Below, piece after piece: positions 6,092 through 47,161 of a DNA stretch of 64,000 nucleotides. How positions within the stretch are numbered: the stretch's first letter is position 1; each line of letters starts with the position of its first letter. The notes beneath the pieces are model-generated. The model was given only the letters and a program-made list of their open reading frames with translations, was not told the origin of the DNA and searched no databases. Source of the DNA: a virus (lineage: Duplodnaviria; Caudoviricetes); the IMG/VR virus record IMGVR_UViG_3300017761_003550, positions 1-64,000 of that record; one strand, given 5' to 3'. The translations under genes and the position numbers were made by a program.

Positions 6092-7090
6092 ATGTATACA
6101 TTCAAACAGTTTATTCGTGAAGGTCTGACGCAGTGGCAGGCAAAGCTTGCGCACAATGTTGCATCAAGAAGAAAGCCAGAAGTCCTAAAACAGACTGATC
6201 GTTACTTCGGAAAAGGCTCAGACGAGAAGAAACTCACAATTACTGATCCAGGGTCTAAAAAAAGCCCAGTGCATCAAGAGGTTGAGCAGCACCTTGGAAG
6301 AGAAATCTCACATTTTGACTACCATGAGGGATTGACGCCTGCAGACCCTAAAAAGCCACAAAATCGCACTAAACTCGGAAAGATGATCAAGGATTCAGGT
6401 ATCCGCGATCGCTTTAATTCTGACCCATCAAGAAATCGTGACCTATCGAGTCACAAATACAATCCAGTTATCCAGCATTCTGATGAACACCACGAATTAG
6501 TCGTTCAACGTGGAGCTCACGTCGCTGGCATGTCTAACCCTGAATCGGCGCCAGAACACCCAACTGGGCATTCTTGGGCTTATGGATCAGAATCCAGATC
6601 TGAGGGTGGACAACTTGATGGATCTTGTATGACACATCCATCGCATACAGATGTGTATCATATGGATGATGAAGAAGAAAAAGACACTCTAAGAATCCTG
6701 CATGGTCATGTTAGATACGGCGGTGTTGTGATGTATGGTCGTAAGAATGGTATTGACAAATATCGCGAGTTTCGTGTTCCATATCAAAACACTCAGGGAC
6801 ATACTATTTTCCACAAGAACAACAGCTATGGTGAACATCATCCAGCATTTATGGATGCGGCTGAAAAAGAAGCACAGAAAATGTCTGGGAAACCACGTGG
6901 TTCTGTTATCTACAAGGTAGATCGTGGAAGATTCTACGCCGAAGGTCCTGAACACAAACTTAGACCAGGAACTACTCCTGAACAAATAAAGAATGCATTA
7001 GATAGAAATCATCCAGATTATGAAACAGATTCTGGCAATCGGCTGGCTCTTTTTAAGATGTCGCAGAAATTAAAAGGACAAACGAAATGA
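6092..7090 (+). CDS. Putative internal head protein (CTS-like N-terminus MYTFKQFIRE)
   Basis: N-terminus resembles the T4 IP capsid-targeting sequence; TAAATA late-promoter-like motif at about 6060-6069. Confidence 0.7.
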   Translation: MYTFKQFIREGLTQWQAKLAHNVASRRKPEVLKQTDRYFGKGSDEKKLTITDPGSKKSPVHQEVEQHLGREISHFDYHEGLTPADPKKPQNRTKLGKMIKDSGIRDRFNSDPSRNRDLSSHKYNPVIQHSDEHHELVVQRGAHVAGMSNPESAPEHPTGHSWAYGSESRSEGGQLDGSCMTHPSHTDVYHMDDEEEKDTLRILHGHVRYGGVVMYGRKNGIDKYREFRVPYQNTQGHTIFHKNNSYGEHHPAFMDAAEKEAQKMSGKPRGSVIYKVDRGRFYAEGPEHKLRPGTTPEQIKNALDRNHPDYETDSGNRLALFKMSQKLKGQTK

Positions 7091-7257
7091 GAATTTTACT
7101 AATCGCATTGGCACTGATGACTGCAGCTTGTTCATCAGTGCCTGTCGTTACACCACCAATTTCAACAATTGAAGATGGTCGCTCAACTGAGCCATCGCCA
7201 GCGCCAGGTGGATATAGCCAGTTCTGTCGTGACACACCAACATCCCCCCTTTGCTGA
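7087..7257 (+). CDS. Small lipoprotein (56 aa) resembling the N-terminal part of alphaproteobacterial BTLCP proteins
   Basis: Read manually: MRILLIALALMTAAC (signal peptide + lipobox Cys), ends PGGYSQFCRDTPTSPLC; ATGA overlap with upstream ORF. Confidence 0.8.
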   Translation: MRILLIALALMTAACSSVPVVTPPISTIEDGRSTEPSPAPGGYSQFCRDTPTSPLC

Positions 7258-7269
7258 TAGGAGATTTTA

Positions 7270-7704
7270 ATGTCACTAGCAATCATCGATGAAGTGTTTA
7301 AGATCGTTAGACTACGGCTAATCTACGAATCAGATGAAAAGGTTTTTGGTAAAAATGAATATTGGAAATCTTGGAAAAATGAAATTGCTGCAGGCCCAGG
7401 AAATTTCAAAGATGATTGCGATGGCTTTGCTCTTACAATGGCAGAGATGCTGATCGATCGTGGTATAAACAAAAAGCATGTTGCTCTTTGTTTCTGCGCC
7501 ATCGTTGATGATGCAAGCCCAAACAACAAAGAATATCATCTAGCAACTAAGGTGTTCAACGAACAAGACGGATATTGGTATATTATGGACAACAATGTTA
7601 GTCGTCCACAAAGACGTAAAAACGCTGGTGGTTATGGATGGGGATTTGAATGGATCTCTTGTATGTACGCTGATAAACCAGGTAATTGGGTAGTGGATCA
7701 ATGA
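7270..7704 (+). CDS. Transglutaminase-like cysteine protease (BTLCP / peptidase C93, LapG-like) catalytic domain
   Basis: YESDEKVFGKNEYW, DDCDGFA (Cys), EYHLA (His), YIMDN (Asp), in BTLCP order and spacing. Confidence 0.75.
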   Translation: MSLAIIDEVFKIVRLRLIYESDEKVFGKNEYWKSWKNEIAAGPGNFKDDCDGFALTMAEMLIDRGINKKHVALCFCAIVDDASPNNKEYHLATKVFNEQDGYWYIMDNNVSRPQRRKNAGGYGWGFEWISCMYADKPGNWVVDQ

Positions 7705-8084
7705 TGAAAACGTTTAAAGAATTCAGTGAAGCTACTAGGGTCCGAGGATTCCCAAAGGGTTCAAGAATCACCACAACAACTGTCCACAAAAGTGATATTG
7801 AACACGCTACTGCGTTGTCATCAGATTTAGCGACAGCAGACAGTAAACCATTCGTTAAAATTCACCACAATCCAAAAGATAAAACTTTTGAAATCCACAC
7901 AAGACGAAGAGATGTTAAAGGTTCTCCAACTGGCCCAGCTGCTGTTACGAAATACGACGAGGGTAGTTTTATACGACACGCAAATAAAGTAATGAGTAAG
8001 GTCTTTCCAGATTTTTATCCACCTGCTAAACACGCTTCAATGGAAACCAACGGAAAGAAGTTTCGTTTCAAATTAGGTAGATAA
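7701..8084 (+). CDS. Putative internal head protein (MMKTFKEFSE)
   Basis: MKTFKEF matches the T4 IPI N-terminus as recalled; basic protein; start at ATGA overlap. Confidence 0.7.
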   Translation: MMKTFKEFSEATRVRGFPKGSRITTTTVHKSDIEHATALSSDLATADSKPFVKIHHNPKDKTFEIHTRRRDVKGSPTGPAAVTKYDEGSFIRHANKVMSKVFPDFYPPAKHASMETNGKKFRFKLGR

Positions 8085-8089
8085 ATATC

Positions 8090-8503
8090 ATGTGGATTTA
8101 TGAAGGTAAAGATGTTGAGGAAGTTCCAGAAAACGTTTTTGGGTTTGTCTATCTTATAGAATGCACAAACGGAAAAGCTTATATCGGTCGAAAGTATTTC
8201 ACTAAAGCCGGATACAAGGTCGTAAAAGGTAAACGTAAAAAACTTCGGAAGGAATCTGATTGGAAAGATTATTATGGTTCATCCAAAGATTTGCTGGCTG
8301 ATTTAGAACACTATGGTCCGAAATGTTTTAAAAGAACTATTCTTAGATTTTGCCAGACTCGCGGCGAAACCAACTACCAAGAAGCCAAGTTACAATTTCA
8401 ATATAATGTTCTAGAAGAAAAACTACCTGATGGAACTCCACGGTATTATAATTCGTGGATCTCAGGCAAATTCCACAGAGCATCTATTTCTAAAAAGGCT
8501 TGA
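8090..8503 (+). CDS. GIY-YIG nuclease (endonuclease II/DenA-like)
   Basis: GFVY-LIECTNGKA-YIGRK, YYGSS, conserved Glu (NYQEA) and YYN. Confidence 0.8.
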   Translation: MWIYEGKDVEEVPENVFGFVYLIECTNGKAYIGRKYFTKAGYKVVKGKRKKLRKESDWKDYYGSSKDLLADLEHYGPKCFKRTILRFCQTRGETNYQEAKLQFQYNVLEEKLPDGTPRYYNSWISGKFHRASISKKA

Positions 8504-8527
8504 CAACTGTCGTGCATACACTATACT
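8500..8527 (+). promoter_or_regulatory. Sigma70-type promoter
   Basis: TTGACA-16 bp-TATACT upstream of the SpeD-like gene. Confidence 0.65.
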
Positions 8528-8567
8528 ACACTATTCTATTAACAATCTTAGAAGGAAATTACGTGAA

Positions 8568-8996
8568 TTGGGAAAAGTACTCGAACACAAGCACCTCATT
8601 GTTAGGGCAGAATTAAACAACCCACCAAAGGATCCAGCCGCAATTAAGGACTGGATGGCTCGTCTTGTAGATACCATTGGGATGAAAATTCTTATGGGCC
8701 CATACAGCGTGTATTCTCCTATGGTTGGTAATCAAGGACTCACAGCAGTCACAATCATCGAAACAAGTCACATCGCGATGCACGTCTGGGACGAATGTGA
8801 TCCCGGACTAATGCAATTTGATGTATACACTTGTTCCACTCTTGATATTAAAGACGTCTTCGACGCTCTCAGTGAATTTGAACCAACGAAAGTTGAGTAC
8901 AAGTTCATTGATCGCGAACATGGTCTTAAAACAATCACCGGTGGTAAACGTACAAAGATTAAAGCAGTGAAGAAACAGCTTGACAAAGCTGCATAA
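8568..8996 (+). CDS. speD: S-adenosylmethionine decarboxylase proenzyme family (pyruvoyl-dependent)
   Basis: HLIV, GLTAVTIIETSHIAMHVWDE, FDVYTC; TTG start after AGGA. Confidence 0.8.
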   Translation: MGKVLEHKHLIVRAELNNPPKDPAAIKDWMARLVDTIGMKILMGPYSVYSPMVGNQGLTAVTIIETSHIAMHVWDECDPGLMQFDVYTCSTLDIKDVFDALSEFEPTKVEYKFIDREHGLKTITGGKRTKIKAVKKQLDKAA

Positions 8997-9194
8997 AAGC
9001 AGTAGACTTGAGTATGAAGAATCAATTGTTTTCTTGGCCAAAAACTTTTTTCTACTGCCACAAAGCTTCTTGGAAAAATGGTAAAAGTTTTCACACAGTA
9101 GTTGATCAACTACACCAGTTGAATTATTACTGTGTGAAAATACCTTTCAAGAGAAAGACACCATACCTTTACATTTTTATTGACAGGGAAATCG

Positions 9195-9416
9195 ATGCGT
9201 AAGTACGTTATCTGGTCTAAGAACAATTGCCGCTTCTGTCAAGAAGCTAAGAGCTTTTTGCTTATGCGGAAAGCAGACTTTGAAGTTAAGACACTTGATC
9301 TAGACTACAACATAGAAGAGTTCGTGAAGAAATTTCCTACAGCTAAAACATTCCCCGCAATCACCTGTAATGATGATTATATCGGTGGTTTTGAACAACT
9401 AAAAGAGAGTTATTAA
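9195..9416 (+). CDS. Glutaredoxin
   Basis: CRFC active site, TFP, YIGGF. Confidence 0.92.
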   Translation: MRKYVIWSKNNCRFCQEAKSFLLMRKADFEVKTLDLDYNIEEFVKKFPTAKTFPAITCNDDYIGGFEQLKESY

Positions 9417-9417
9417 T

Positions 9418-9696
9418 ATGAAAAAAGAAACACCACGTGAGAATTTCGTCAACCAATTACTTAAAGGACCATGTACAGTGGTCTTTACTAAGGTAGATGG
9501 TTCCACTCGTCGAATGCCGGCGACTCTTCATCACTCACTTATTCCTGCTGAAGAAATTGCACCTGATGACGCTACCAAAAGCCGCAAGGTAAACGAGGAA
9601 GTCGTTCCTTGCTTTGATCTAGAGCTCCAGAAATGGCGTAGCTTCAGAGTCGATTCTGTCATTAGTTTTGAACCAGCCCTGCGAGTTGAGACATGA
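9418..9696 (+). CDS. Conserved T4-like SH3/WYL_2-like protein
   Basis: VVFTKVDGSTRRM...CFDLELQKWRSFRVDSV pattern. Confidence 0.65.
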   Translation: MKKETPRENFVNQLLKGPCTVVFTKVDGSTRRMPATLHHSLIPAEEIAPDDATKSRKVNEEVVPCFDLELQKWRSFRVDSVISFEPALRVET

Positions 9697-9938
9697 TCGA
9701 AGCACAAGATTTCCCAATTCCTCAGTTCTTTACAAATAAGCTTTTCGCGGAACTGTTTGAGATGATGGGTCTGGCGATTGCAGATCCTACAGGAAAATGC
9801 GATTATCTTCTCACGGACACTGGTGTAGAATTCTTTTACACTAATGCTGCCGCCTCACCAAAAGACGTTATGAACGCTTTGGGTGTTGAGCTTCAGCAAT
9901 TTCGCGAAAGTAACGTTTTGACAGACGAGGATATGTAG
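9693..9938 (+). CDS. Hypothetical protein
   Basis: ATGA-coupled ORF with GAG SD. Confidence 0.65.
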   Translation: MIEAQDFPIPQFFTNKLFAELFEMMGLAIADPTGKCDYLLTDTGVEFFYTNAAASPKDVMNALGVELQQFRESNVLTDEDM

Positions 9939-9940
9939 TA

Positions 9941-10867
9941 GTGGAACTGAATGAAGTCAACAAAAACGCGAACGGTGGTACTGAACTCGTAACACGTGGG
10001 ATTCTTGAGAGGATTAGTCCGGAAGAATTTGAAGGTGTGCAGTTGATCACAAGTCGAGTGCGTGAACTGAAGAAGAGACACAAGAGAATTCTCCACCTAC
10101 ACGACCTTGCCGGTGATCCTGAAGTTCAACATCTTAAGTCTGATCTAAGTCGCAATCGTTTCTCTAAACTGGTGTTCTGTTCTAACTGGCAGTACGAATC
10201 CTATCGTAACCAGCTTGGTGTTCCTTGGGATGACAAGTCTACAGTAATCGCCAATGGCATTGAGCCGCTCGGTATGATGTTGAAACCTACCGATAAGATT
10301 CGTCTTATCTACACAAGTACACCGCATCGTGGACTTGAGATTCTGGTTCCGGTCTTTGAACATCTGTACAAACAGTTTGATGGTCAGATCGAGCTTGATG
10401 TTTTCTCAAGCTTCAACATCTATGGTTGGCCAGAACGTGACCAACCTTACGAAGAACTTTTTGAACGCTGCCGTCAACACCCCGGAATCAACTATCACGG
10501 ATTCCAACCAAACAGTGTTGTAAGAGGAGCTCTTGAGAAAGCACATATCTTTGCTTATCCATCTATCTGGCAGGAAACATTTTGTATTGCGCTCGCAGAA
10601 GCTATGTCTGCCGGTTGCTTGTGTGTCCATCCTAATCTAGCAGCTTTGCCAGAGACTTCCGGTGGGTTAACGGTAATGTATGATGGTAATCAGAATCCTA
10701 ATGAACATGCACAAGTGTTCGCTCATACGCTCGCTTATGCTATTGAGAATATTCGCCAGAATGATATGACACCATTATTGAAATACATCAAGTCTTTCGC
10801 GGATACTCGTTACTCTTGGACTAATGTTATCTATAAATGGCAATCACTACTAAACTCTCTGAAATAA
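9941..10867 (+). CDS. Glycosyltransferase, GT-B fold (GT4-like)
   Basis: GGTE, IYTSTPHRGL, YPSIWQETFCIALAEAMSAG (EX7E motif), AALPE. Confidence 0.9.
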   Translation: MELNEVNKNANGGTELVTRGILERISPEEFEGVQLITSRVRELKKRHKRILHLHDLAGDPEVQHLKSDLSRNRFSKLVFCSNWQYESYRNQLGVPWDDKSTVIANGIEPLGMMLKPTDKIRLIYTSTPHRGLEILVPVFEHLYKQFDGQIELDVFSSFNIYGWPERDQPYEELFERCRQHPGINYHGFQPNSVVRGALEKAHIFAYPSIWQETFCIALAEAMSAGCLCVHPNLAALPETSGGLTVMYDGNQNPNEHAQVFAHTLAYAIENIRQNDMTPLLKYIKSFADTRYSWTNVIYKWQSLLNSLK

Positions 10868-10881
10868 AGAACATTTTTTGC

Positions 10882-10910
10882 TTGCTTTCTGTGGCCGGAC
10901 GTAGTATACT
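10882..10910 (+). promoter_or_regulatory. Early sigma70-type promoter
   Basis: TTGCTT-17 bp-TATACT; same pattern at 16002 and 19161. Confidence 0.75.
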
Positions 10911-10936
10911 GAAGGCTCAGATAAAGGAGACCACCT

Positions 10937-12040
10937 ATGCCTCGCGGCATCAAAAAGAAACGCGCACGTAGAGCTTCCGGAACACAAACCGATGCCTTCT
11001 ACGGTGCAGAGCCGATCTTTACTGGTAAAATTACTGACCAACAACTCCACCCAACTCTAACTTGGTACAACTACACTCAAGACCCTGAGAAGGGTAAAGT
11101 GTGGCTTCTCGACTTTATGGGTCGTGAAGGTTATACGAAAGCCGAAATTCAGGCAGTCAGGCGTGTCAACTTTAACGCCATTCCTTCGGTCGTTTACTGG
11201 CTGTCTAAGATCGCTCTGAATGGCACGAAGCTTCCTAAAGACACGGTAGTTCGCTTCAAAGAACGCATTCAAACAGCCATTCAGAAGGGTGCCGGTCTCA
11301 AGGACCCTGACGCTGTCAAGGCGAAGAAGAAACCACCCAACATCCAGGAACGCATCAAAGAGAAGGGTGAGCAGCTTATCGCTGACCTTGAAGACGCTCT
11401 TGACAATTTCTTTGTCAACAAAGAGAAGTTCTCGATGTATGACTTCCTTCAGAAGAACGAAGTCTCTTCGCAGATCACTAATATGATCGCTGCTTATTAC
11501 CAACCAAAACTTGATGAGCTCAATGAGCGTGACGCACAGGTGACGGAAGCCTATGGGTCTGATCGCGCACGTCTGAAGAAGTTCTTCAACGAATGGTTTT
11601 CTGATATCGAGCGCTACGGCTCTAACCGTAAGGTGTCGAAAGAGCGGAAGCCTCGCAAGAAGAAAGAGAAGCTGGCCGTTGATGTCATCAAGCGTCTCAA
11701 GTACCAGAAAGAATTCAAGCCTCTGAAGATCGTTTCCGTTAACCCAATCGAGATGATTGGTGCGCAGCAGCTGTGGGTCTACAACACTAAATATAAGCAG
11801 CTGGCCGTTTATAATGCTGCCGGACCAGCTGGTATTAGTGTCAAAGGGACAACTCTTATTGGTTTCGATCAAGAAGAATCTGAGTACAAGACGCTTCGTA
11901 AGCCTGAAGAACAGGTCGCGAAGCTTCTCTCAACTGGTAAGATTGGTCTGAGGAAATTCATGGGTGAGATGAAGACTAAAGCTCGGAAGCCGAATGGCCG
12001 AATCAACGAGAACATCGTAATTCTAAAGGTGATTAAGTGA
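10937..12040 (+). CDS. Conserved hypothetical basic protein of T4-like phages
   Basis: 367 aa ORF, AAGGAG SD, own early promoter, C-ending codon bias. Confidence 0.85.
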   Translation: MPRGIKKKRARRASGTQTDAFYGAEPIFTGKITDQQLHPTLTWYNYTQDPEKGKVWLLDFMGREGYTKAEIQAVRRVNFNAIPSVVYWLSKIALNGTKLPKDTVVRFKERIQTAIQKGAGLKDPDAVKAKKKPPNIQERIKEKGEQLIADLEDALDNFFVNKEKFSMYDFLQKNEVSSQITNMIAAYYQPKLDELNERDAQVTEAYGSDRARLKKFFNEWFSDIERYGSNRKVSKERKPRKKKEKLAVDVIKRLKYQKEFKPLKIVSVNPIEMIGAQQLWVYNTKYKQLAVYNAAGPAGISVKGTTLIGFDQEESEYKTLRKPEEQVAKLLSTGKIGLRKFMGEMKTKARKPNGRINENIVILKVIK

Positions 12041-12891: not shown

Positions 12892-12908
12892 TACAAGGAA
12901 AAACTAAA

Positions 12909-13331
12909 ATGCCAATGAAACGAGCTATCTCTGAAATTATCACAGAGGCTGCTAAATTCGAAGACGATCAAGAACGTGTAGACTTTCTACGCAAGAACGA
13001 CGTCGCTCCTCTTCGAGTTCTTCTTCAGTATGCGCTTGATTCGCGTGTACGGTGGCTTCTCCCTGAAGGGGAAATCCCCTACAAGCCAAACAAAGAATAT
13101 CTTGATCTCCATGGTATGCTTTATTCACGTGCCCGCACTCTGTATCTCTTTGTTGAGAATAGCAACGCTCCGGCCATGACAATCGAGAAGCGTGTATCAA
13201 TGTGGCGCCAGCTTCTTGAAACAGTTCTGCCTGAAGACGCTGAGTTTCTTGAGCGTATTAGAAACGGTAAAGTTTGGAAAACGATTAATAAGAAGGTTGT
13301 GAACAGAGCCTTTCCTGGTCTGGTCAAGTAG
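12909..13331 (+). CDS. Conserved hypothetical protein typical downstream of rnh
   Basis: ISEII...LLQYALD...LPEGEIPYK pattern. Confidence 0.75.
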   Translation: MPMKRAISEIITEAAKFEDDQERVDFLRKNDVAPLRVLLQYALDSRVRWLLPEGEIPYKPNKEYLDLHGMLYSRARTLYLFVENSNAPAMTIEKRVSMWRQLLETVLPEDAEFLERIRNGKVWKTINKKVVNRAFPGLVK

Positions 13332-13342
13332 TAGAGAGAGAG

Positions 13343-13519
13343 ATGAGTAAGTCAAAACATACGCGGTCTAAATTCGAAAAATATGATGAAGATCAAGATG
13401 ACTGGAGGACCGATCGCGACGAGCATCGTCGGAAGGTTTCCAACAAGCGAATTAATGCCGCTCTAAAAACGAAGAACATCGATCAGCTCCGTGAGCTTGA
13501 TGATGAGCTTTACGACTGA
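13343..13519 (+). CDS. Small charged hypothetical protein (58 aa, MSKSKHTRSK...)
   Basis: Read manually; AG-rich SD; fills the gap. Confidence 0.65.
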   Translation: MSKSKHTRSKFEKYDEDQDDWRTDRDEHRRKVSNKRINAALKTKNIDQLRELDDELYD

Positions 13520-13529
13520 GAGATAGGTT

Positions 13530-17141: not shown

Positions 17142-17189
17142 CCAATTTCTGTATTGACTAAATATTCCGCAGTCAAAGAGGAACAACCA

Positions 17190-17942
17190 ATGAAGTCGCT
17201 TAGAGAACACGTTACAGAATCGCTTGCCGACCGTGGTGATATTCGCCCCGAGCACAACAAAAACGTATACGCCAAAGTCTTGAAATACGTTAAAAGCGAT
17301 CCTGAATTTCACAGTGCTCTTCACGGTGCTTCAGATGATATTGAGGGCTCTATTTCCTCGATGAGAAGAAATGATGAACGAAGAAACATCGTTGATCACG
17401 GAATGTCACCTTCCGCTGCTCGTGTTGCTGCAATAGCTAGTAACGGTAGTATTAAGGATGGTATTTCTGATTTCATGAAAGACCATTTGCATTGGAAATT
17501 TGGTAATCATCCAGGCTATTACAGCGGTCCAAACGTTCCTTCTATTGCAAGTGATATTGTGGACAAACATGTTGAAATTCCATATGATGACAGTGAAGAA
17601 ATAGCTGATGCCGAAAGAAGCCACAAGGAAAACGAAAGTCGTGCTGGCGTTCGTGCAGCTAAACAGAAAATTGACAACGAGATAAAGGATACTGTCAGTC
17701 GGATACATCCTGGTCAACTTCAACACAGTTTAGAGGTCCACAGATTACTTCGCGATAAGGCCACCGTTAGAAAAGCCCCGGAAGATGTACGCCACCACAC
17801 CAGAACTATGTTTCATATCAAAAAAGCTTTGGTGGCTAACGGTTTGACCCCATCTTCTCGTCCAAAGGCACCTGAAAGAAATGTGAGAGTATTAACTAAG
17901 AACGGTTTAGTTAATCGCCCGACTCGTCAACCTTTTAAATAA
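17190..17942 (+). CDS. Putative internal head protein (MKSLREHVTES)
   Basis: GAGG SD before ATG 17190; ACTAAATA late-type motif upstream; His/Arg-rich. Confidence 0.7.
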   Translation: MKSLREHVTESLADRGDIRPEHNKNVYAKVLKYVKSDPEFHSALHGASDDIEGSISSMRRNDERRNIVDHGMSPSAARVAAIASNGSIKDGISDFMKDHLHWKFGNHPGYYSGPNVPSIASDIVDKHVEIPYDDSEEIADAERSHKENESRAGVRAAKQKIDNEIKDTVSRIHPGQLQHSLEVHRLLRDKATVRKAPEDVRHHTRTMFHIKKALVANGLTPSSRPKAPERNVRVLTKNGLVNRPTRQPFK

Positions 17943-17949
17943 ATAATTT

Positions 17950-18024
17950 GCTGTCTTAGCTCAGTGGTAGAGCGCTGGTTTGTGGAACCGGTGGTCCGTG
18001 GTTCAATCCCACGAGGCAGTTCCA
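17950..18024 (+). tRNA. tRNA-His(GUG), no encoded G-1, U73 discriminator
   Basis: GCTGTCT/AGGCAGT acceptor, CTGGT-TTGTGGA-ACCGG anticodon arm, TTCAATC T-loop, CCA. Confidence 0.92.
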
Positions 18025-21890: not shown

Positions 21891-22091
21891 ATGCTAGACG
21901 AATCCTTAAAGGATATTATGTCTCTTAAAGACAGACAAGAATATAGCTTTCATCTGAAAAGGTTAAAAATTCACGCTGCTGCTGTTCCTAGAATTAGACA
22001 TGATGATATTAGGCGAGAACATAATAGAAAAATGGCTGATTTTCATCTAGACCAAGTAAATGCTCTTGTCAGTAAGTATTATCCAGGATGA
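21891..22091 (+). CDS. Small His/Arg-rich hypothetical protein
   Basis: AGGAG SD; MLDES N-terminus. Confidence 0.65.
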   Translation: MLDESLKDIMSLKDRQEYSFHLKRLKIHAAAVPRIRHDDIRREHNRKMADFHLDQVNALVSKYYPG

Positions 22092-22207: not shown

Positions 22208-22232
22208 CTTGTAAGCTAAATAAGAGTATTAT
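22204..22232 (+). promoter_or_regulatory. Sigma70-type promoter with embedded late motif
   Basis: TTGACT-17 bp-TATTAT; GCTAAATA lies within the spacer. Confidence 0.55.
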
Positions 22233-22253: not shown

Positions 22254-22610
22254 GTGGGTAGAATTCTTGATCTTATCAAAGAGTCTCTTGGCGATCCAAG
22301 TCGGTTGCTGAAAATTACTTACACAGGTTCCAGCGAGTGGCATGATCCAGAAGACGATTTTAATTATCAATCTGATTCAGCCTTCACACACTACAAAGTT
22401 CAACATCCAAACGGTGAAGTTCAACATGTTTCTATAGATCATGATAAGGGTTCTGTTATTAAACACAAAAAAGATCCAAACAGACCAAATGGTGCATGTC
22501 GCGGATCTGAACAATGTGATCATAAGCCAGAAGATTTTGAACATCTTGAAAACATCGCGATGATTAGAAAAACAATTGCTCCAAAAACAAAAGTACGAAT
22601 GCATAAATAG
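22254..22610 (+). CDS. Putative internal head protein (MGRILDLIKES)
   Basis: AGGAG SD 7 nt before GTG; IKE|S motif; His-rich. Confidence 0.65.
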   Translation: MGRILDLIKESLGDPSRLLKITYTGSSEWHDPEDDFNYQSDSAFTHYKVQHPNGEVQHVSIDHDKGSVIKHKKDPNRPNGACRGSEQCDHKPEDFEHLENIAMIRKTIAPKTKVRMHK

Positions 22611-38766: not shown

Positions 38767-39285
38767 ATGACACTGTTAAATAAAATTCGCGAAGTATTGG
38801 CAGAGTCTAAGGTTGATCTTCCATTTGACACCAAGTTGCTGTTGATGAAATCACACAAAGCTATTGGTCATCTGATTGATAACAACACAAGAACACCAGA
38901 AAGAAATGGGTATACTGAAAGATTACATGATCATCCAGAGCATCTTAAGGCTCTTCATCATGCCATCGGAAATAGTATTCGTCGTTTAAACCCAAATACA
39001 CCAGATATGCAGACTTCGCATCCTAAAGGTAAAATGGGTGGACTTGTTAGATGGGACAGACCAAAACACCAGAAAGCTCTGTTGTGGATGGCTAGAAATG
39101 AGTTGAATAAAGTAAGAGCGCAACATGGTAATCCATTCAATTATGGACATCCAAATCCATCACATAAGATGAGTGATGGTGAGTTTGATGAGCATATCCG
39201 CAGACTAGGTGATGTTGTTGGTACTAAGCCTTGGCCAGAAGATGGCATGAAGGACACAATCAAAAAGGTTTGGAATAGATCATAA
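38767..39285 (+). CDS. Putative internal head protein (MTLLNKIREVLAES) inserted between gp6 and gp7
   Basis: LAE|S motif; His/Lys-rich; not a baseplate protein. Confidence 0.65.
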   Translation: MTLLNKIREVLAESKVDLPFDTKLLLMKSHKAIGHLIDNNTRTPERNGYTERLHDHPEHLKALHHAIGNSIRRLNPNTPDMQTSHPKGKMGGLVRWDRPKHQKALLWMARNELNKVRAQHGNPFNYGHPNPSHKMSDGEFDEHIRRLGDVVGTKPWPEDGMKDTIKKVWNRS

Positions 39286-39824
39286 TGGCTGTAAATTACA
39301 GATGGATATACCAAAAACATTATGGACCTATCCCAAAAGGATATGATATCCATCATCGCGATGGTGACCATGGTAATTGTGACATATCTAATCTAGTAGC
39401 TGTAACACTTCAAGAACACTACGACATACATTTTGCTCAAGGTGATACTGCTGCTTGTCAAGCAATTGCAATGAGAATGTCTCGTCCCCCTGAAACTGTC
39501 TCAGAGTTAGCTAAAAAACGTGTTGCTGAAGGTACACACCCATTCCAAGATAAAGAAGCAGCAAAACAACGAGCATACAAAAGAATTGCAGAAGGTACAC
39601 ATCCTTTTTTTGTAGATGATTTTCAAAAGAAAAACAACAAGAAAAGAGTTGAGGCTGGCACTCATAATATGCTGGGTCCAGCGTTATCCAAGAAAAGATT
39701 GGCTGAAGGCACACACCCATCACAAAAATTAAGAACATGCCCACACTGTAATAAACAAGGTAAGGCACCTGGTATATTCAAGTGGCATTTCGATAAGTGT
39801 TCAGAGAAACAATTATGTCTATAG
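39285..39824 (+). CDS. HNH homing endonuclease
   Basis: YGPIPKGYDIHHRDGDHGNCDISNL...EH; four R(V/I/L)xxGTH repeats; CPHC...WHFDKC zinc finger. Confidence 0.88.
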   Translation: MAVNYRWIYQKHYGPIPKGYDIHHRDGDHGNCDISNLVAVTLQEHYDIHFAQGDTAACQAIAMRMSRPPETVSELAKKRVAEGTHPFQDKEAAKQRAYKRIAEGTHPFFVDDFQKKNNKKRVEAGTHNMLGPALSKKRLAEGTHPSQKLRTCPHCNKQGKAPGIFKWHFDKCSEKQLCL

Positions 39825-42800
39825 AAAAAACAATCAGTCAGTATGTAGAGAAGCAGTTCCCAGCATTCTATCAAGACGAAGGACCACAATTTATCAGCTT
39901 CGTAAAAGCATATTACGAGTGGCTTGAGCAACCAGACAATGTGGCATATAAGGCTCGTCATCTGCTTGAGTATCGCGATATCGATACCACACTTGATGAG
40001 TTCATTCTTTACTTCAAAGAGAAATATCTCAAGAACATTCAGTTTGATACCGCAACCAACAAGAAACTGTTGGTCAAGCACTCATTAGACCTGTATCGTT
40101 CAAAAGGAACTGAGCGTTCTATTGACCTGTTCTTCAAGCTGGTGTTTGGTACCGCAGCAGAGGTACAATACCCAGGTGAGCGTATCTTCAAGCTATCTGA
40201 TGGTGTGTGGGAGCTTCCAAAATATCTCGAAGTAACATACAACAAGTTCAATCTCAATTACGTTGGTAGACAGATCATTGGCTCAGCCAGTGGCGCAACA
40301 GCATTCGTAGAGCGTTATATCCGTCGCCGTGCTGGTTATGGATATGTCAATCTGCTCTATATCAGCAATCAAGTGGGTACATTCACACGTGGTGAAGTCA
40401 TTGGTGTTCAATCAAGTGGTCGCTCAGTATACACACCAGGGCAGACAGCAACAATCATCGGTTCTATTGAAAGTGTAATCATTCAGGACAATGGACGTGA
40501 CTTTGCTATTGGTGATACCGTAAACTTCCTACATAGTGATCGTGGTATTGGTGGACAAGCACGTGTCACATCAATCGGCGAAGCCTCTGGTATTATCGAT
40601 TTCATTCTGAATGATGGTGGCTGGGGATACACAACCAATGCTACATCTATTGTTTCAGAGAAAGTAGCAACAGCTAATGGTGTTGTCGGCACAGTTGGTG
40701 CTAATCAGATCACACTATTCGATATGGCCATTCAGCCAACCATCTCCGTTGACTTCACAACTGGTCCTCAGATAGCACTTGGTGATATCGTTGGACGATA
40801 TGATGGTGCCAATCTTATTGCTAATGGTCAGGTGATTGAGATTGATCAGGTTTCTGGTAATGCCACTGGTACGATGACGATCAGCGTCAACAAGGGACCA
40901 TTTACCGAAGGCACACTGTATGTTAATGGGAACACAACAAGCCTTAATGCAACGACTATTGTAGACAGCAGCACCTATGCTGACATCATGGGTGTGCCAA
41001 GCGTGTATCAGCTATCTGTAGCCAACACAAATGGTGAATTTACCGTCGGAATGAATGTATTCCAGATACAATCTAGCATTGTACATGGGTATGGAACGGT
41101 GTCAAGCGTCTCCAATGGAGTGCTTGTGATTAGTGCAGCGACCGGAAACTTTAGCAATGGAACACCACTAATTGTAAGTGAGAATAACAGCGTCAATGCA
41201 ATCATCTCGAAGGTCGACACCACAATAGGTCTCTATAACATCAACAAACGGGCTTACAGCCTTGATTTTATTAGTGCAAACAACGATGGCATTGCAAACT
41301 CGCAATATTTGTTCCAATATGATGCATCTGCAAATGTCGTTTCCAGTGGGTTAGCCCTTCACTCGTCCGTGTCGTCCAATGCTGGAACTATCGAGTATGT
41401 TCCCATGAAGGGGCAGTTCCAGCTGTATGTACCCATCTACACAGTCGGTAATACCGCCAAGGCCAGCGTCTCTGTCATCACTGCACCAACAACAGGTGGT
41501 GACTTCGTGGAGTCGGCCAATGCTATCTGGAGAACGGCATATACCAATACCATGTTCACTGTATCCTCACTATCCGAGGGCACCGGTGCACAATTCGATG
41601 TTGGTACCATTGGAGAGACAGAAGTCCTGTATCTGGGCACCGATATCATCTCCGCGAATGGTGATGCGAGAGCAAACTTTGCGAGAAAGAGAATATTCGT
41701 CGGGTCGAGCACATCATTCCAAACTGGTGATTTCGTCTCGCAGGTCACAAACACGACATTTACCGCATATGGAACAGTTACTGGCACAGCTACTGGTATT
41801 GTACGTGTGACTGATATCTATGGGACATTCGGAAATACCGGTGGTGCCAATGGCAATCTACTGGTAGTGGGCAATTCCGCTGTCAACTCAAACATCACCG
41901 ATGTACTGGGAATCACCGCCTCTAGCTTCTTTCTGCAAGATATACCATATATGTACCTCCCAATCAGAGCATCCAGCTATGGATTCCCCAAGAACCCACA
42001 GGGCAACCATGCAGACATTATCTTTGACTGTCTATCCTTTGATCGATTCGAAGTGGGCACAATCGACTCATTAGCTGGTGTTGACCCTGGTTCTGGCTAC
42101 AATGTGGACCCATATGTTCTGGTGGAGCAACCAGAGATCGCTGGCTTCCAGAGACGGGACTATGTCTTCAATGTATCCAACTCGAGCTCATCATTCCTTG
42201 TGGGAGAGAAGATCAACCAGGTAGCGGCAAACCTGACGACATATACGCTCACTGTCAACTATGGCACGAGCAATACCGTGTATGTGAGCAGAAGCGCCAA
42301 TGTCACTCCGACATATGATGTGATTGCTGCTACCGACTTCATATACGCACAGAGCAACATATACACATTCACCGCTGGACAGGTGGTGAATCCATTCACA
42401 AGCTCTCTTGAGGTCGCCAATGAACTCCTTGTTGGAGATACTCTGAGATACTATGCAGAGACTGGGAATACTGGGATTATCGCGAACAATACCTTTGTCA
42501 CAGTGACAGCAGCCAATTCATCTGCATTCACAGTGAATGTGGCATTGACGATCACCAGCAACACATTCAATCCAAACAATATCGTCAACAACTTCATCAG
42601 CATAGCATCCAACCCATATGCGAATGGTGTACCACTGAGATATGTTGTAGCAGCAGGGAATACCGCTGTACCAGGCATATCCAACAACAACACATACTAT
42701 GCTGTAGAAGCAAATAGCACCGGTCTCCGCTTGTCATCAACACTATCCGGATCGGTACTGTCACTGACACTGGGCGCCAATGAGACTGGCCATGCTCTGA

Positions 42801-43816
42801 CAAGCACACTTCCAGCTAGCAATGGACATAAGTTCTCGGTATATCGCAACTCATTCAGCAATGGTGAGCAGGTGATCTACAATAACACATATGTCGGCTC
42901 TGCAGTGATCACTGGACTGGCAAACAACACTATGTACTATGTGGTACAGGCAAATAGCGTTGGATTCAAGGTAGCAACAACATTCGGTGGTGCAAACATT
43001 GATTTGACTGCTGGAGGTAGTGCGAATGACCACTTCTTCACATCAATCCCAGGCTGGCTCATTAATGAGGGTGTATACTCCAATAGTGGTGCATATGGTG
43101 TAATTCAGAGTGTTGGTAATGGGTCCATCGTTGTTAAAAGCGTCAGCAATGGCACATTCGCTGCACCAGGCACACTTAGCTCGAACACCAACTCTTACTT
43201 AACCGCCAATGTAGCAACAAGCACACTGAGCACTATAACACAGACATCAGAGGGCATCGTGAAGTCTTCTAACACTTCAGTCATTGTGGTTAAAAGGATT
43301 CAGTTTGAGAACAACTGGGCGTCTAACACCACTATAACGGGTGAAGTCACCGGTGCTACAGCAGTCTTAAACAGCATCGATATAGACACACTATCACTGC
43401 CTGTTGGTTTAAACGCCAATGTTGAAGCCAATGTCATTGCTGCTGAAGGACAGGTCACGGGTTTAAAGATCATTGATAGTGGCTTCGGATATGACAACAG
43501 TGAGATAATACAGTTCACCAGCGTTGATGGTTTAAGAGCAGCCAGTGCCAAGGTTATATTAGGTGGTGTTGGTAAGGGTGCTGGTTATTATAAGAGCTCT
43601 AAAGGCTTTCTTAGTGACTCTGTATGCTTACACGATGGCGATTACTATCAGGAATACTCTTATGAGATCTTTAGTAAGCTCTCAGTTGATCGGTATAGTG
43701 ACATGTTTAAGAAGGTGATGCACACGGCAGGGACCAAGTTCTTTGGCTCCGCACGAGTCGTGGAAGAGGATGCCGTGGTGGTGACGCTTGTTGACTCCAC
43801 TGTGGTCCAAGAGTGA
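39815..43816 (+). CDS. 7: Baseplate wedge initiator gp7 (with large insertions)
   Basis: QFPAFY..EGP.F..FVKAYYEWLE, YRSKGT..SI.LFF, DGDYYQEYSYEI, MHTAGTKFFG. Confidence 0.9.
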   Translation: MSIEKTISQYVEKQFPAFYQDEGPQFISFVKAYYEWLEQPDNVAYKARHLLEYRDIDTTLDEFILYFKEKYLKNIQFDTATNKKLLVKHSLDLYRSKGTERSIDLFFKLVFGTAAEVQYPGERIFKLSDGVWELPKYLEVTYNKFNLNYVGRQIIGSASGATAFVERYIRRRAGYGYVNLLYISNQVGTFTRGEVIGVQSSGRSVYTPGQTATIIGSIESVIIQDNGRDFAIGDTVNFLHSDRGIGGQARVTSIGEASGIIDFILNDGGWGYTTNATSIVSEKVATANGVVGTVGANQITLFDMAIQPTISVDFTTGPQIALGDIVGRYDGANLIANGQVIEIDQVSGNATGTMTISVNKGPFTEGTLYVNGNTTSLNATTIVDSSTYADIMGVPSVYQLSVANTNGEFTVGMNVFQIQSSIVHGYGTVSSVSNGVLVISAATGNFSNGTPLIVSENNSVNAIISKVDTTIGLYNINKRAYSLDFISANNDGIANSQYLFQYDASANVVSSGLALHSSVSSNAGTIEYVPMKGQFQLYVPIYTVGNTAKASVSVITAPTTGGDFVESANAIWRTAYTNTMFTVSSLSEGTGAQFDVGTIGETEVLYLGTDIISANGDARANFARKRIFVGSSTSFQTGDFVSQVTNTTFTAYGTVTGTATGIVRVTDIYGTFGNTGGANGNLLVVGNSAVNSNITDVLGITASSFFLQDIPYMYLPIRASSYGFPKNPQGNHADIIFDCLSFDRFEVGTIDSLAGVDPGSGYNVDPYVLVEQPEIAGFQRRDYVFNVSNSSSSFLVGEKINQVAANLTTYTLTVNYGTSNTVYVSRSANVTPTYDVIAATDFIYAQSNIYTFTAGQVVNPFTSSLEVANELLVGDTLRYYAETGNTGIIANNTFVTVTAANSSAFTVNVALTITSNTFNPNNIVNNFISIASNPYANGVPLRYVVAAGNTAVPGISNNNTYYAVEANSTGLRLSSTLSGSVLSLTLGANETGHALTSTLPASNGHKFSVYRNSFSNGEQVIYNNTYVGSAVITGLANNTMYYVVQANSVGFKVATTFGGANIDLTAGGSANDHFFTSIPGWLINEGVYSNSGAYGVIQSVGNGSIVVKSVSNGTFAAPGTLSSNTNSYLTANVATSTLSTITQTSEGIVKSSNTSVIVVKRIQFENNWASNTTITGEVTGATAVLNSIDIDTLSLPVGLNANVEANVIAAEGQVTGLKIIDSGFGYDNSEIIQFTSVDGLRAASAKVILGGVGKGAGYYKSSKGFLSDSVCLHDGDYYQEYSYEIFSKLSVDRYSDMFKKVMHTAGTKFFGSARVVEEDAVVVTLVDSTVVQE

Positions 43817-44128
43817 CACACGACACTGTGCCACGCGTCTTGGTGTCTCTAAAAAACCGAGGCGGCCCGGTTGATTTTCGGGTCCCCCTGCGTCGCCCCT
43901 TTAGCGGGGTAGGACCCGACTACCCCATTTCATAATGAGCAATAGTTGCGAGCTGCACCCTGCTATGTTTGCATTGGAATCGTCTCAAAAAATTTTTGCG
44001 AAAAAAAATTGCGGGCTGCAAAAAATCGTCCGTTTTGAAAACACCTCCCCCCCGTAATTGTGAAGAGTGACAAAGATATTGGGAAAACATAAATATACAC
44101 GAAACGCTAGATAAGAGGAACTGCAGTT
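43817..44128. other. GC-rich hairpin plus A-tract non-coding region
   Basis: No ORF. Competing hairpins at 43878-43926; A/T tracts at 43987-44041; CATAAATA at 44088-44095. Confidence 0.6.
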
Positions 44129-45193
44129 ATGTCATTCACATTAAGACCAAGAGATATGTCCGCCCACCCTAAGAATGTTGAAGATGAAAATGGTGCCGGT
44201 CACGCTACCTCTAATGGTGGTATCACCGATTCCGTCACATATCATTTTACCGCACATGATCATAAAGGAAGGCATATCGGTAATGTTTCTGTGAATGATG
44301 GGTTTGGTTACGACAACGAATTCAAGGTCAAATTTGCCCCAAAGGGAGCAACGGGTGCCGCTGCCAAGGGAACTGATATTACCCACGCAATAACACGATC
44401 AGATCAATTTGATATGGATCGTAATTATAATGGTAACAATGCCGATCATGCTCATGAGCATGGCATAGCAGCTTTAACTAGCTACCTCGGAAAGCCCGCC
44501 AGAAAGAGAGATAATTTCAATATTGAATCAACTGAGACACCAAAGAAATCACTTGCAGAATCTGCCGCAAAATTAATCTCTCAGCAAACCGAATTGTCTG
44601 AGATGGGGGATAAGAAGGGTAACGGGGTCTTACACCACTTTCGTTCTGAAAAAGATGTTGCTGGGATGGCCAGACAAAAAAAACTTAATGATCATAAAAA
44701 GGGTTTCGAAGAAGCGATGGTTCGCCGTAACAGGGCGCTGGCGAAGGCTACAGATCTGATGACTCCAGATAGAGATAGATCCACCCACCTAGCCATGGCC
44801 AACCAAGCTCACGGTGAAGCACAGGAACATGCTAAGGAACACACAAAAATTATGAATGCTGGTCGCAGATATACACATAAACCACATGCCAGCCTTTATG
44901 GTGAATTTGAATCTAAGATGCCTAAGAGCACACCTAGACAAGAGTTTGACAAGTCGCGAGATCATCGAGATCATCGAGCGGAGTCTAATCTTGGTAAGAT
45001 TAAAAGAGATCACGCAGCTGCCGTAAAAAGGGTTGAAGATCACCTTGCAAGTACTGAAACTTGGCGACGCCATCGCCCAGCATCTGCGGAACAAACTGCA
45101 GAACACAGCAAAAAACTTAAATTGGCTAAACAAGAAGTTGCGAAACACAGAGCTGCCTTCATCGACGCCGGTGGTAAAGAGTCAGATCTTTAA
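44129..45193 (+). CDS. Hypothetical His/Arg-rich protein with internal [ILV]xE sites
   Basis: Late motif upstream; KKSLAE|S and TELSE|M internal. Confidence 0.75.
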   Translation: MSFTLRPRDMSAHPKNVEDENGAGHATSNGGITDSVTYHFTAHDHKGRHIGNVSVNDGFGYDNEFKVKFAPKGATGAAAKGTDITHAITRSDQFDMDRNYNGNNADHAHEHGIAALTSYLGKPARKRDNFNIESTETPKKSLAESAAKLISQQTELSEMGDKKGNGVLHHFRSEKDVAGMARQKKLNDHKKGFEEAMVRRNRALAKATDLMTPDRDRSTHLAMANQAHGEAQEHAKEHTKIMNAGRRYTHKPHASLYGEFESKMPKSTPRQEFDKSRDHRDHRAESNLGKIKRDHAAAVKRVEDHLASTETWRRHRPASAEQTAEHSKKLKLAKQEVAKHRAAFIDAGGKESDL

Positions 45194-45206
45194 GAGGAAT
45201 AATATT

Positions 45207-45494
45207 GTGAGAAAATCTTTAAAGCAAATTATAGCGGAGAAGCATCTAAGAGAATCTGTATCTCAAGGTCGTCGGGCGATTGTTAGGCAGATGAAATCAG
45301 ATCTTGATGGTCTTAATACAAAGGCACAAAACTATAGAAGCATCTCCGCTTTCCATAAAGATTGTCTAGCTACTGCAACAAGAGTTGATGATGCGGAGCA
45401 TTCCCAGTTCATGAGTGATGTAAATAAAGACATAGCAAACAGAGTTCAGGCGCATGCCGACGAACTAGCAGCCAAAATTAAAGCTGTTCGATAA
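45207..45494 (+). CDS. Putative internal head protein (MRKSLKQIIAEKHLRES)
   Basis: GAGG SD before GTG at 45207. Confidence 0.7.
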   Translation: MRKSLKQIIAEKHLRESVSQGRRAIVRQMKSDLDGLNTKAQNYRSISAFHKDCLATATRVDDAEHSQFMSDVNKDIANRVQAHADELAAKIKAVR

Positions 45495-45524
45495 ATACAC
45501 AAAACCTTCCGGAGAGATATTAAG

Positions 45525-46760
45525 ATGGTAAAGATTACTCTAGATAGTGTCAAGCACCACGATAACGGCACACCCGAGCCAGGCGAAGAGCATTATGGTG
45601 ATGGCTATACGCATACGTTCCATGTGCATTCTAATAGTGGTGAGCATATTGGTACAGTGACGCACTACACAACGGAAGGTGGATATCCAAGACAAATTAC
45701 ATATCACCACATGTCTGATGGAAAGCCGACATTTACTAGCTATGGGGCAAAACGCTGGACTCCTATTGGACGAACGCTCGAAAGAGGTCTGAAATACGAA
45801 AATGACTTCGATAAAGATGGAAATGATCTAACTAAAGAAAAAGCAGAGGGTGTAAGAGCTAGAAATGCCCTTACGCAAGTAAAGAGTGCCGTTCGTTTAT
45901 TTGCAAGAAGCAAAGGAGGTCAAGACTTTCTTGCCGCATCACACTTTGATGCTAAGACTAAGGGTAATAAAACTCCAAAGCGCGAAATGCCTAAGGAACT
46001 TGGGGAATCATTTAAAAAAAGCAAGCTTACTATCATCAAAGAAGCTATTCGCGAACAGCAGCCTGTTCAAGAACAAACTGAAGCCGAGAAGCATACCTGG
46101 TTTGCTCAACAACACACTAAAGCCGCTGATCAACTAGATGGTCGCATTGCCACATTAAATTATAGATTTAATTCCGCTGCAAAGCAATCTAAAGAGTTTC
46201 CAGGTGTGTCTGATTCCACATCAATAAAAGCACACCATATGAATATCGCTATTTGGCAAGCTATAGCGGATGGCCATCGTAAAGATGCTGCTTGGCACAC
46301 TGGAAAGGCCAAAGAACTTACTCCTGCTGTAGAATCATATGTCTCAGAAAGAGCGGGAGCGAATTTTCAAATTGTGGCGCCCGACCATGATGATGATGGA
46401 AAAATCTTTACAAGACGCGAGGATGCTATTGCTAGAATCAAAAAAATAAAGAAAACGCATCCTAGTATCCGTTCTAGTATTAAGAGTCTCCATGCTGAAG
46501 CCACAGAAGAAGATAAGAACTCTCAAGAAATAACAAGACAAGAATGGTATAAGGCCAAGGAAAAAATCCACAAAAACAATCGCGCATTACTAAGAAAGGT
46601 TGGTATTAATGGCCCTGGACAATCAATTAAAGGTTGGACCGGAGTTGTCACACACAAAGGCAAGCAAGTAAATGTTGCTAAGCTGAGAAGTCAGGTTGGT
46701 TGGACTGCAGATCTATTTCGCAAGAATCGCCTAGCTGGTAAAGTAGAAACTGCAGATTGA
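45525..46760 (+). CDS. Modular hypothetical protein with several internal [ILV]xE linkers
   Basis: GATAAATA at 45490-45497; ELGE|S, IIKE|AIRE|Q, YVSE|R. Confidence 0.8.
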   Translation: MVKITLDSVKHHDNGTPEPGEEHYGDGYTHTFHVHSNSGEHIGTVTHYTTEGGYPRQITYHHMSDGKPTFTSYGAKRWTPIGRTLERGLKYENDFDKDGNDLTKEKAEGVRARNALTQVKSAVRLFARSKGGQDFLAASHFDAKTKGNKTPKREMPKELGESFKKSKLTIIKEAIREQQPVQEQTEAEKHTWFAQQHTKAADQLDGRIATLNYRFNSAAKQSKEFPGVSDSTSIKAHHMNIAIWQAIADGHRKDAAWHTGKAKELTPAVESYVSERAGANFQIVAPDHDDDGKIFTRREDAIARIKKIKKTHPSIRSSIKSLHAEATEEDKNSQEITRQEWYKAKEKIHKNNRALLRKVGINGPGQSIKGWTGVVTHKGKQVNVAKLRSQVGWTADLFRKNRLAGKVETAD

Positions 46761-46771
46761 AGGTTTAAGGT

Positions 46772-47161
46772 ATGACACTTCTAGAAAGAATCAAATATCA
46801 TATCAATGAAAAGAAATGCACATGCTGGAAAGGGTACAAGCGTGTTCCTGGTACCAAGCCATGTTCAAATAATTCTTGCGTAAAAGAACAGCGTTTGGCT
46901 GAAGCTGAGTACCAGGGAAATACTGTTACCCTCAACAAACCATCTGCGGGTGATGTAAAGAATAAGAAGTCTAAAGTATATGTCATAGGCCCGAATGGAA
47001 AGGTTGTTAAAGTTAACTTTGGTGATAAGAATATGACCATTAAAAAGCATATTCCCGGAAGAAGAAAATCATTTAGAGCTAGACATAATTGCGATAACGC
47101 AGGGCCAAAATGGAAAGCAAAATATTGGAGTTGCGATGCCTGGGAAAAACCTGATCGCTAA
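46772..47161 (+). CDS. Conserved T4-like small protein (CWKGYKR.PG / EAEYQG..VTLNKP / RRKSFRARHNCD / YWSC)
   Basis: Motifs recalled from aquatic T4-like phages; N-terminus MTLLERIKYHINE|K. Confidence 0.8.
   Translation: MTLLERIKYHINEKKCTCWKGYKRVPGTKPCSNNSCVKEQRLAEAEYQGNTVTLNKPSAGDVKNKKSKVYVIGPNGKVVKVNFGDKNMTIKKHIPGRRKSFRARHNCDNAGPKWKAKYWSCDAWEKPDR

Follow-up and report, generated by a model that had tools for sequence, protein, structure and literature searches.

Candidate leader-bearing genes in the window

The window analysed here (64,000 nucleotides) covers the first 64 kb of a viral contig of 83,859 bp, IMG/VR record IMGVR_UViG_3300017761_003550, and it belongs to a T4-type myovirus distant from T4 itself. 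Scattered between positions 6092 and 47161 are eight open reading frames (ORFs), named below by their start positions, whose N-termini were proposed to be leaders similar to the capsid targeting sequence (CTS) of the T4 internal proteins IPI, IPII and IPIII (Mullaney and Black 1996, as cited in PMC9026906 and PMC3012670). The features of the locus are collected in Table 1, together with the T4 leaders taken from record NC_000866.

PHROG searches match a T4-type baseplate operon (equivalents of the tail tube cap, gp53, gp5, gp25, gp6, gp7 and gp8) and, in addition, fibres, gp32, gp59, a class II ribonucleotide reductase, PhoH and homing endonucleases. Head genes are absent from the 83.9-kb contig, and the part past the window ends at the tail sheath and tube (gp19). 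The gp6 protein is at most 37% identical to that of any cultured phage, the nearest being Caulobacter Cr30, Stenotrophomonas DLP6, Sinorhizobium phiM12, pelagiphage HTVC008M and cyanophages, and near-identity and protein searches with pieces of the window found no close relative among cultured phages. Uncultured relatives in IMG/VR are closer, with identities of 88%, 83% and 62% in gp6 and 100%, 90% and 62% in PhoH.

Table 1. Leader candidates, late-type motifs and T4 reference leaders (a slash marks the cut, predicted for the window; the score is that against MKTYQEFIAE)
Feature	Position	Strand	Description	Leader and cut	Score
Reductase	953..2818		False positive	MKDYQRVIAV, no Glu	21
ATAAATA	6063..6069	+	T4 late-promoter-like motif, 29 nucleotides 5' of the 6092 ATG; heads operon 6092-8084
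6092	6092..7090	+	332 amino acids; mature part 322 amino acids, isoelectric point (pI) 9.1, 7.1% His	MYTFKQFIRE/G	23, best of all
7704	7704..8084	+	126 amino acids; mature pI 10.3	MKTFKEFSE/ATRVRG	21
17190	17190..17942	+	250 amino acids; TAAATA at 17159	MKSLREHVTE/SLADR	18
21891	21891..22091	+	66 amino acids, His-rich, basic; swappable slot	MLDE/S (start)
22254	22254..22610	+	118 amino acids, GTG start; TAAATA at 22217	MGRILDLIKE/SLGD
38767	38767..39285	+	172 amino acids, His-rich, basic	MTLLNKIREVLAE/S
ATAAATA	44089..44095	+	Late-like motif; heads 44129-45494
45207	45207..45494	+	95 amino acids, GTG start	MRKSLKQIIAE/K	21, one-residue offset
ATAAATA	45491..45497	+	Late-like motif; heads 45525-47161
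46772	46772..47161	+	129 amino acids, basic, Cys-containing; leader, CxCW module, RLAE/AEYQG, core domain	MTLLERIKYHINE/K
T4 IPII, IPIII			IPII continues ..IAE/ARVGAG	MKTYQEFIAE/A
T4 IPI			Begins MKTFKEFTST	MKTFKEFTSTTTPVSTITE/A
T4 gp24				MAKINELLRE/S
T4 gp22				MLKEQLIAE/A
T4 gp23				..FLTE/AE

Resemblance to T4 leaders

Ten residues of the T4 CTS suffice for its function, where residues 4 and 7 serve targeting and residues 8 and 10 serve processing (PMC9026906). We scored every N-terminus of the genome against MKTYQEFIAE; five reach the cut-off of ≥15, with 0.19 expected. The strict T4 geometry, i.e. hydrophobic residues at 4 and 7, [ILVF] at 8 and Glu at 10, is found in three N-termini (6092, 17190 and 22254), with 0.12 expected. 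Positions 4 and 7 are occupied by F4/F7 in 6092 and 7704, I4/L7 in 22254, L4/I7 in 38767 and 46772, L4/H7 in 17190 and, shifted by one, L5/I8 in 45207, while 21891 has no such residues. The predicted processing sites are IRE10 (6092), VTE10 (17190), IKE10 (22254), IAE11 (45207), LAE13 (38767), INE13 (46772) and FSE9 (7704), and at the level of the motif the processing-site Glu is kept in the homologues of 6092, 38767 and 46772.

The first-pass annotation was correct in several respects. All eight N-termini read as it had written them, those of 22254 and 45207 starting with GTG; the ORFs are mutually unrelated, with no paralogy in an all-against-all BLASTP comparison; their products are basic and often His-rich, as it had stated (see below for the figures); and TAAATA does stand upstream of several of them, at 6064 (-28 from the start of 6092), 17159 (-31 from 17190), 22217 (-37 from 22254) and 38713 (-54 from 38767).

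The first two ORFs belong to the same operon and both are strong CTS candidates. In the homologues of 6092, which form five clusters down to 67% identity, F4, F7 and E10 never vary and position 8 holds either I or L; Pfam and PHROG searches with 6092 gave no match, and neither did the protein atlas. Residues 1-7 of 7704 (MKTFKEF) are identical to those of T4 IPI (7/7), and the junction SE/ATRVRG is similar to AE/ARVGAG of T4 IPII. The start of 7704 overlaps the preceding stop codon (TGATG) and is backed by the relative L025, which reads MKTFKEFTE.

Cassette exchange at 17190 and the slots at 21891 and 22254

The relative L025, whose PhoH is identical to that of the window, is informative for 17190. 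Its DNA homology to the window stops at 17234, 15 codons past the ATG of 17190, and returns at 17955, just beyond the stop codon. The two proteins have MKSLREH[VL][TS]ESLADR in common, followed by 34% identity in the mature parts. Because the DNA homology between near-identical phages ends 15 codons into the gene, the mature part has evidently been exchanged behind the leader. E10 is retained in the alleles P0134 (MKSLREHLSE/ALADR) and G002:1290 (MKTLRDTLLE/ALADR) and absent from L027:11810, and an exhaustive HMMER search with 17190 found one real relative family. We regard 17190 as a good CTS candidate.

The leader of 22254 resembles that of T4 gp24. The pattern MG[KR]xL[QD]xIKE[AST]L has nine matches in IMG/VR, against about 0.05 expected by our own estimate; seven of the nine lie at ORF starts, across three ORF families, and the mature parts of two of these families, the two that were compared, are unlike 22254. 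No homologue of the mature part of 22254 was found. On this evidence 22254 is a moderate candidate.

As to 21891, its MLDE start is not supported as a leader; it consists of four residues only, and a stop codon lies two codons upstream. In L025 an 87-amino-acid ORF with a full leader, MGKRLQTIKE/ALKPK, stands in place of the whole ORF. We also considered 21891 as a truncated gene of this full-leader type and rejected it, the alignment being weak (z = 2.5).

Genes inserted in the wedge operon

The gene 38767, together with an HNH endonuclease gene (39285-39824), is inserted between gp6 and gp7, and this insertion is missing in the relatives L008, L019 and L011. The homologues of 38767 form seven clusters in which E13 is invariant and E9 is variable. 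The segment MTLLx[KR]I[RK] is common to 38767 and 46772, and a similar leader, MNTLTRIRTVLGE/K, is found on a different His-rich protein (G002:95779). A strict scan of IMG/VR with the MTLL-type pattern gave a mixed, uninformative set. We rate 38767 as a moderate to weak candidate and 45207 as a moderate one; the leader of the latter is nearly identical to MKSLKTIIAE/A, which occurs on one member of the 46772 family. We judge 45207 to be coding from its ORF, ribosome-binding site (RBS) and composition, because the fetched loci gave no homologues.

The gp6-gp7-gp8 wedge operon as a whole is interrupted by the genes of 38767-39824 and of 44129-47161, and both sets are missing in relatives at 62% and 44% gp6 identity (the same L008, L019 and L011). 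The second set includes two His-rich basic ORFs without N-terminal leader, at 44129-45193 and 45525-46760. Both have internal leader-like segments, and their N-terminal modules are weakly alike. The internal KKSLAE/S of 44129 is the start of separate ORFs at L009:16848 and L001:6848.

The 46772 family

46772 is the only candidate with a family match (phrog_7595, a family of unknown function), and its family is large, with more than 6000 clusters. The same core, AEYQGKxVxLNKP..., follows every type of leader in this family. Some of these leaders are T4-like (MLSFKQFLNE, MITFKQFITE/AEYQG and MKTFVSFITE/AEYQG), one is the MKSLKTIIAE/A leader of the 45207 type, and others, MSRLLDRIKLSLDE/AEHQG and MTKLIEKVQSILFE, are of the 38767/46772 type. 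In other words, MSRLLD- and MTKLIE-type leaders replace MxSFKxF-type leaders ahead of the same E/A junction, and in an alignment of 55 sequences E44-A45 is invariant. This substitution of leader types, together with the leaderless homologues described below, is in our view what argues best for the MTLL-type leaders, those of 46772 and 38767, being functionally equal to the T4-like ones. In the best 80 similar IMG/VR loci the core always lies behind [LIVMF]-x-E/[AS], and it is often the last module of long ORFs (100-1500 amino acids). A leader form is present in the Kyanoviridae phage C48C1 (MKKFKQYIDE/GCC..LTE/AEYQGK), and the homologue of HTVC008M has an internal MVKSFKEVEE segment followed by ..PLEE/AEFQGK.

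Leaderless homologues of the form M/A.Y.G.. are found in the pelagiphage podovirus HTVC026P, in the siphovirus Kolga, in the Roseobacter phage CRP-901 and also in a Nitrosopumilaceae spindle-shaped (archaeal) virus. Since these proteins begin at the junction, the mature N-terminus predicted for the leader-bearing forms is the natural N-terminus of the leaderless ones. Taken together, the family-level evidence makes 46772 a good CTS candidate.

Structure prediction of the mature domains had been suggested as a check. The AlphaFold (AF2) model of 6092 is unusable, with a predicted local distance difference test score (pLDDT) of 41. The model of 46772 (pLDDT 70) has a helical leader and a drop of confidence at residues 11-13; it found no PDB match at E ≤0.001, and the rows of SH3-like small chromatin proteins were non-significant.

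The MKTFKEF leader in IMG/VR

DNA encoding MKTFKEF is present in at least 120 stretches of IMG/VR. The figures given here refer to the matches listed, which contain 106 unique ORFs; the first 75 of these were examined individually. Most of them (66 of 75) start at most 25 codons after an upstream stop codon, 49% have [ILVMF] at position 8 and Glu at position 10, the median length is 153 amino acids and the mature parts have a median pI of 10.1. Across the 106 unique ORFs the seven codons are written in 47 synonymous ways, so it is the peptide that is conserved and not the DNA, and the leader thus appears to be a widespread module at the protein level. T4-like core genes, often gp20-gp23, were found in 38 of the 120 windows.

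TAAATA occurs within 60 nucleotides upstream in 41% of the 106 ORFs as opposed to 4% in the background, the most frequent spacing being 25-29 nucleotides before the ATG. The spacing of TAAATA at 6092, 17190 and 22254 is T4-like and matches that of the environmental ORFs. The longer form, ATAAATA, heads the operons that hold 7704 (at 6063), 45207 (at 44089) and 46772 (at 45491). Note that TAAATA by itself is not enriched in the genome (53 occurrences, 50 expected).

Composition of the mature parts

The mature parts are 62 to 322 amino acids long and have a pI of 9.1-10.3 in seven of the eight candidates, the exception being 22254 with 6.7, which is also the median of the genome. Their His content is 4.8-8.3%, except for 46772 (1.7%, equal to the genome mean), and when the proteins of the genome are ranked by His content, all candidates other than 46772 fall within the top 15. 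The T4 internal proteins are likewise basic (pI 8.9-9.5), with 1-2% His, and the environmental MKTFKEF ORFs are not His-rich (median 1.4%). The leader-bearing ORFs of the relatives G002, L025 and L029 are also His-rich, and so are 44129 and 45525. Pfam and PHROG assigned no function to any of the mature parts.

Proposed route into the head and its alternatives

We think it likely that at least four of the ORFs (6092, 7704, 17190 and 46772), and probably 22254, 45207 and 38767 too, carry T4-type head-loading leaders. These would be amphipathic propeptides of 9-13 residues, the counterpart of the T4 CTS. According to this proposal the candidate genes would be transcribed from T4-late-type promoters, and the leader, by way of its hydrophobic residues 4 and 7, would dock the protein on the scaffolding core during prohead assembly. 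A prohead protease of the gp21 type (Peptidase S77) would then cut after the Glu of [ILVF]-x-E, which would remove the leader and free a small, basic, His-rich mature protein. The latter would remain inside the head alongside the DNA and, most likely, exit together with it at infection.

The proposal is built on the identity to T4 leaders, on their conservation and interchangeability, on the cassette exchange, on the late-type motifs and on the protease of a close relative, all of which are observed directly. The protease, Peptidase_S77 (PF03420), is encoded in the close relative G002 (83% gp6 identity) as well as in the more distant G001 and G005. The head module of G002 contains the portal, core proteins, the protease, the scaffold and a capsid protein with ..QQLLGE/AVPT at the expected place. 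Packaging of the candidates is well supported, although indirectly, and we likewise only infer cleavage, ejection and any role after entry.

It is possible, if somewhat improbable, that the proteins are loaded and processed and yet are structural contents of the head, i.e. proteins that condense the DNA or neutralise charge, or components of the core comparable to T4 gp67 and gp68, rather than injected effectors. The mature parts are basic, of low complexity and without enzyme domains, and the core of 46772 resembles, non-significantly, only small SH3-like chromatin proteins. On several environmental contigs MKTFKEF ORFs lie between gp20 and gp21, which is the site of T4 gp67/gp68, and in T4 itself about 1000 internal protein molecules are embedded in the DNA of the head (PMC3012670). 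On the other hand, the quick turnover of alleles between near-identical phages and the variable presence in relatives fit conflict genes better than structural parts, and T4 IPI and IPIII are both packaged and active against host defences. An anti-defence role is nevertheless speculation, drawn from the analogy with IPI and IPIII and from the fast cassette turnover only, and a DNA-condensing or other structural role in the head is equally open as an alternative to an effector role.

There are a number of points that weigh against head-loading leaders on as many as seven ORFs. Some of them would fit the idea that true capsid targeting is limited to the two or three ORFs whose leaders are most like those of T4 (6092, 7704, perhaps 17190), the other leaders being ordinary amphipathic N-terminal helices with a chance [ILV]-x-E, an idea that we find unlikely. 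Firstly, [ILVF]-x-E, the criterion of the first-pass annotation, is too loose: it occurs within the first 14 residues of 22 of the 88 N-termini compared to 14.7 expected from internal 14-mers, which is near chance, and gp48, gp7 and gp19 (tail tube) are among its carriers. Secondly, 22254, 38767 and 46772 score at most 4 against MKTYQEFIAE and have no sequence like it, and the same absence is found in 21891. Thirdly, the strict MTLL-type scan did not yield a coherent set, and homologues of 22254, 45207 and 21891 were not detected in the fetched relative loci. A further warning against judging leaders by similarity alone comes from the reductase N-terminus (Table 1), which we rejected as a false positive because it is a conserved enzyme sequence lacking the Glu. 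Against the narrow view stands, above all, the 46772 family, where MSRLLD- and MTKLIE-type leaders swap with MxSFKxF-type ones before the same E/A junction. Moreover, the 22254-type leader recurs far above the chance estimate on families that, where compared, are unlike 22254, and it resembles the gp24 propeptide; E13 is invariant in the homologues of 38767; and the weaker candidates, 46772 excepted, have the same unusual His-rich basic composition.

The remaining points against the proposal concern processing and distribution. The site of 7704 is atypical (F-S-E at residues 7-9), and its homologue in a relative with 90% PhoH identity (L026:1354-1749) begins with MAKEKFSKGY and is leaderless; the tag was therefore gained or lost inside one protein family. 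Two ORFs of relatives that have the leader body, L027:11810 (MKTLKEHIVKSL) and L029:3055 (MKTFRQFIFGG), lack the Glu, and their products may be targeted yet unprocessed, or the leaders may have decayed. The protease of the phage itself is inferred from relatives, because the 83.9-kb contig has no head genes. Finally, T4-like core genes were seen in 16 of the 80 IMG/VR windows with 46772-family genes, and some of these contigs are 200-500 kb long. The expectation that leader-bearing 46772 homologues are confined to T4-like contigs is thus only partly borne out, and since no more than 16 of 80 windows show such genes, the leader system may extend beyond T4-like phages.

With these points taken into account, the T4-like leaders claimed by the first-pass annotation divide into four that are well supported (6092, 7704, 17190 and 46772), three that are plausible (22254, 45207 and 38767) and one, 21891, that is unsupported. 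Its count of "at least 7" cargo proteins is better regarded as an upper-middle estimate than as a floor.

Mobile regulatory cassettes are reportedly known in T4-type genomes, the leaders are accompanied by late-type motifs at fixed spacing, and recombination breakpoints are located at the leader. Even so, it is very improbable that mobile promoter-RBS-start cassettes, or selection for efficient translation starts, produced the shared N-termini as a by-product without any sorting role, as MKTFKEF is encoded by so many synonymous versions, conservation falls on exactly the positions mapped for T4 targeting and cleavage (PMC9026906), and the homologues in non-T4 viruses are leaderless and begin at the predicted cut.

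Comparison with known systems

The features of the candidates can be compared with those of packaged proteins in other phages. Like T4 IPI-III, they have a putative N-terminal leader of about 10 residues with hydrophobic positions 4 and 7 and with [ILV]-x-E ahead of A, S or G; mutually unrelated predicted mature proteins that are small and basic; putative late-type promoters; scattered genes; and alleles that are swapped behind a conserved leader. The differences are that the mature parts are unlike IPI-III and contain 4-8% His as opposed to 1-2% in T4, that the phage is very distant from T4, that further types of leader, 10-13 residues long, occur, and that two of the genes lie inside the baseplate wedge operon.

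There are also similarities to the T4 prohead proteins processed by gp21 (gp24, gp22, gp67, gp68, gp23 and Alt): the gp24 leader is close to MGRILDLIKE/S of 22254, and the gp23 site ..LTE/AE resembles the junction ..[ILV]xE/AEYQG of the 46772 family. The gp21 substrates have their genes in the head module and are conserved proteins of the structure or scaffold, whereas the ORFs described here are accessory, variable and encoded elsewhere. In the giant phages (SPN3US and the phiKZ group) many packaged proteins, ejection proteins included, are reported to be cut by the prohead protease at short Glu-containing sites, and polyprotein-like cargo is reported as well (PMC5694885, PMC10052503). The core of 46772, where it forms the final module of a long ORF after its usual junction, is comparable to this cargo. 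However, the giant phages are a different group with a different capsid size, and the texts consulted do not report an MKTFKEF-like leader for them. The literature searched, which did not cover subscription journals, yielded no description of CTS-type leaders in phages other than the T-even group and the giant phages.

Most likely, then, what we see would be an extension of the T4 head-loading mechanism to a new phage group, the mechanism itself being already known. As a more tentative generalization, we suggest that T4-type phages far from the T-evens may bring proteins into the capsid by gaining a short, interchangeable leader, and that this clade may load an unusual set of 7-10 His-rich proteins, including the polyprotein-like 44129 and 45525, whose chemistry points to a role in the head or after injection. 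Recruitment through the leader would fit two observations. The small basic core domain of 46772, which is distributed worldwide, has a leader and an invariant E/A in large myoviruses and no leader in podoviruses, siphoviruses and an archaeal virus, and near-identical phages have swapped mature domains exactly at the end of the leader.

Should the leaders function as they do in T4, they would constitute a tag that can be read from sequence, and a defined class of capsid-travelling proteins would emerge from dozens of genes that are now orphans in uncultured phages of the T4 type. The host would encounter such cargo before any other phage product, and the cargo of T4 includes anti-restriction factors. 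The 46772 family, in which the same domain is found with and without the tag, would offer a clean, testable case of a protein becoming capsid cargo, and the His-rich composition would be a new property of such cargo.

Genes around the 6092 operon

The late-type operon of 6092 and 7704 also encodes, between these two strongest candidates (7087-7704), a small lipoprotein-like ORF and a protein of 144 amino acids, of which the latter is conserved in L025-L028. Directly upstream of the late operon headed at 6063, the stretch 3209-6001 encodes two coiled-coil proteins with Pro/Val/Glu repeats that are rich in V-x-E.

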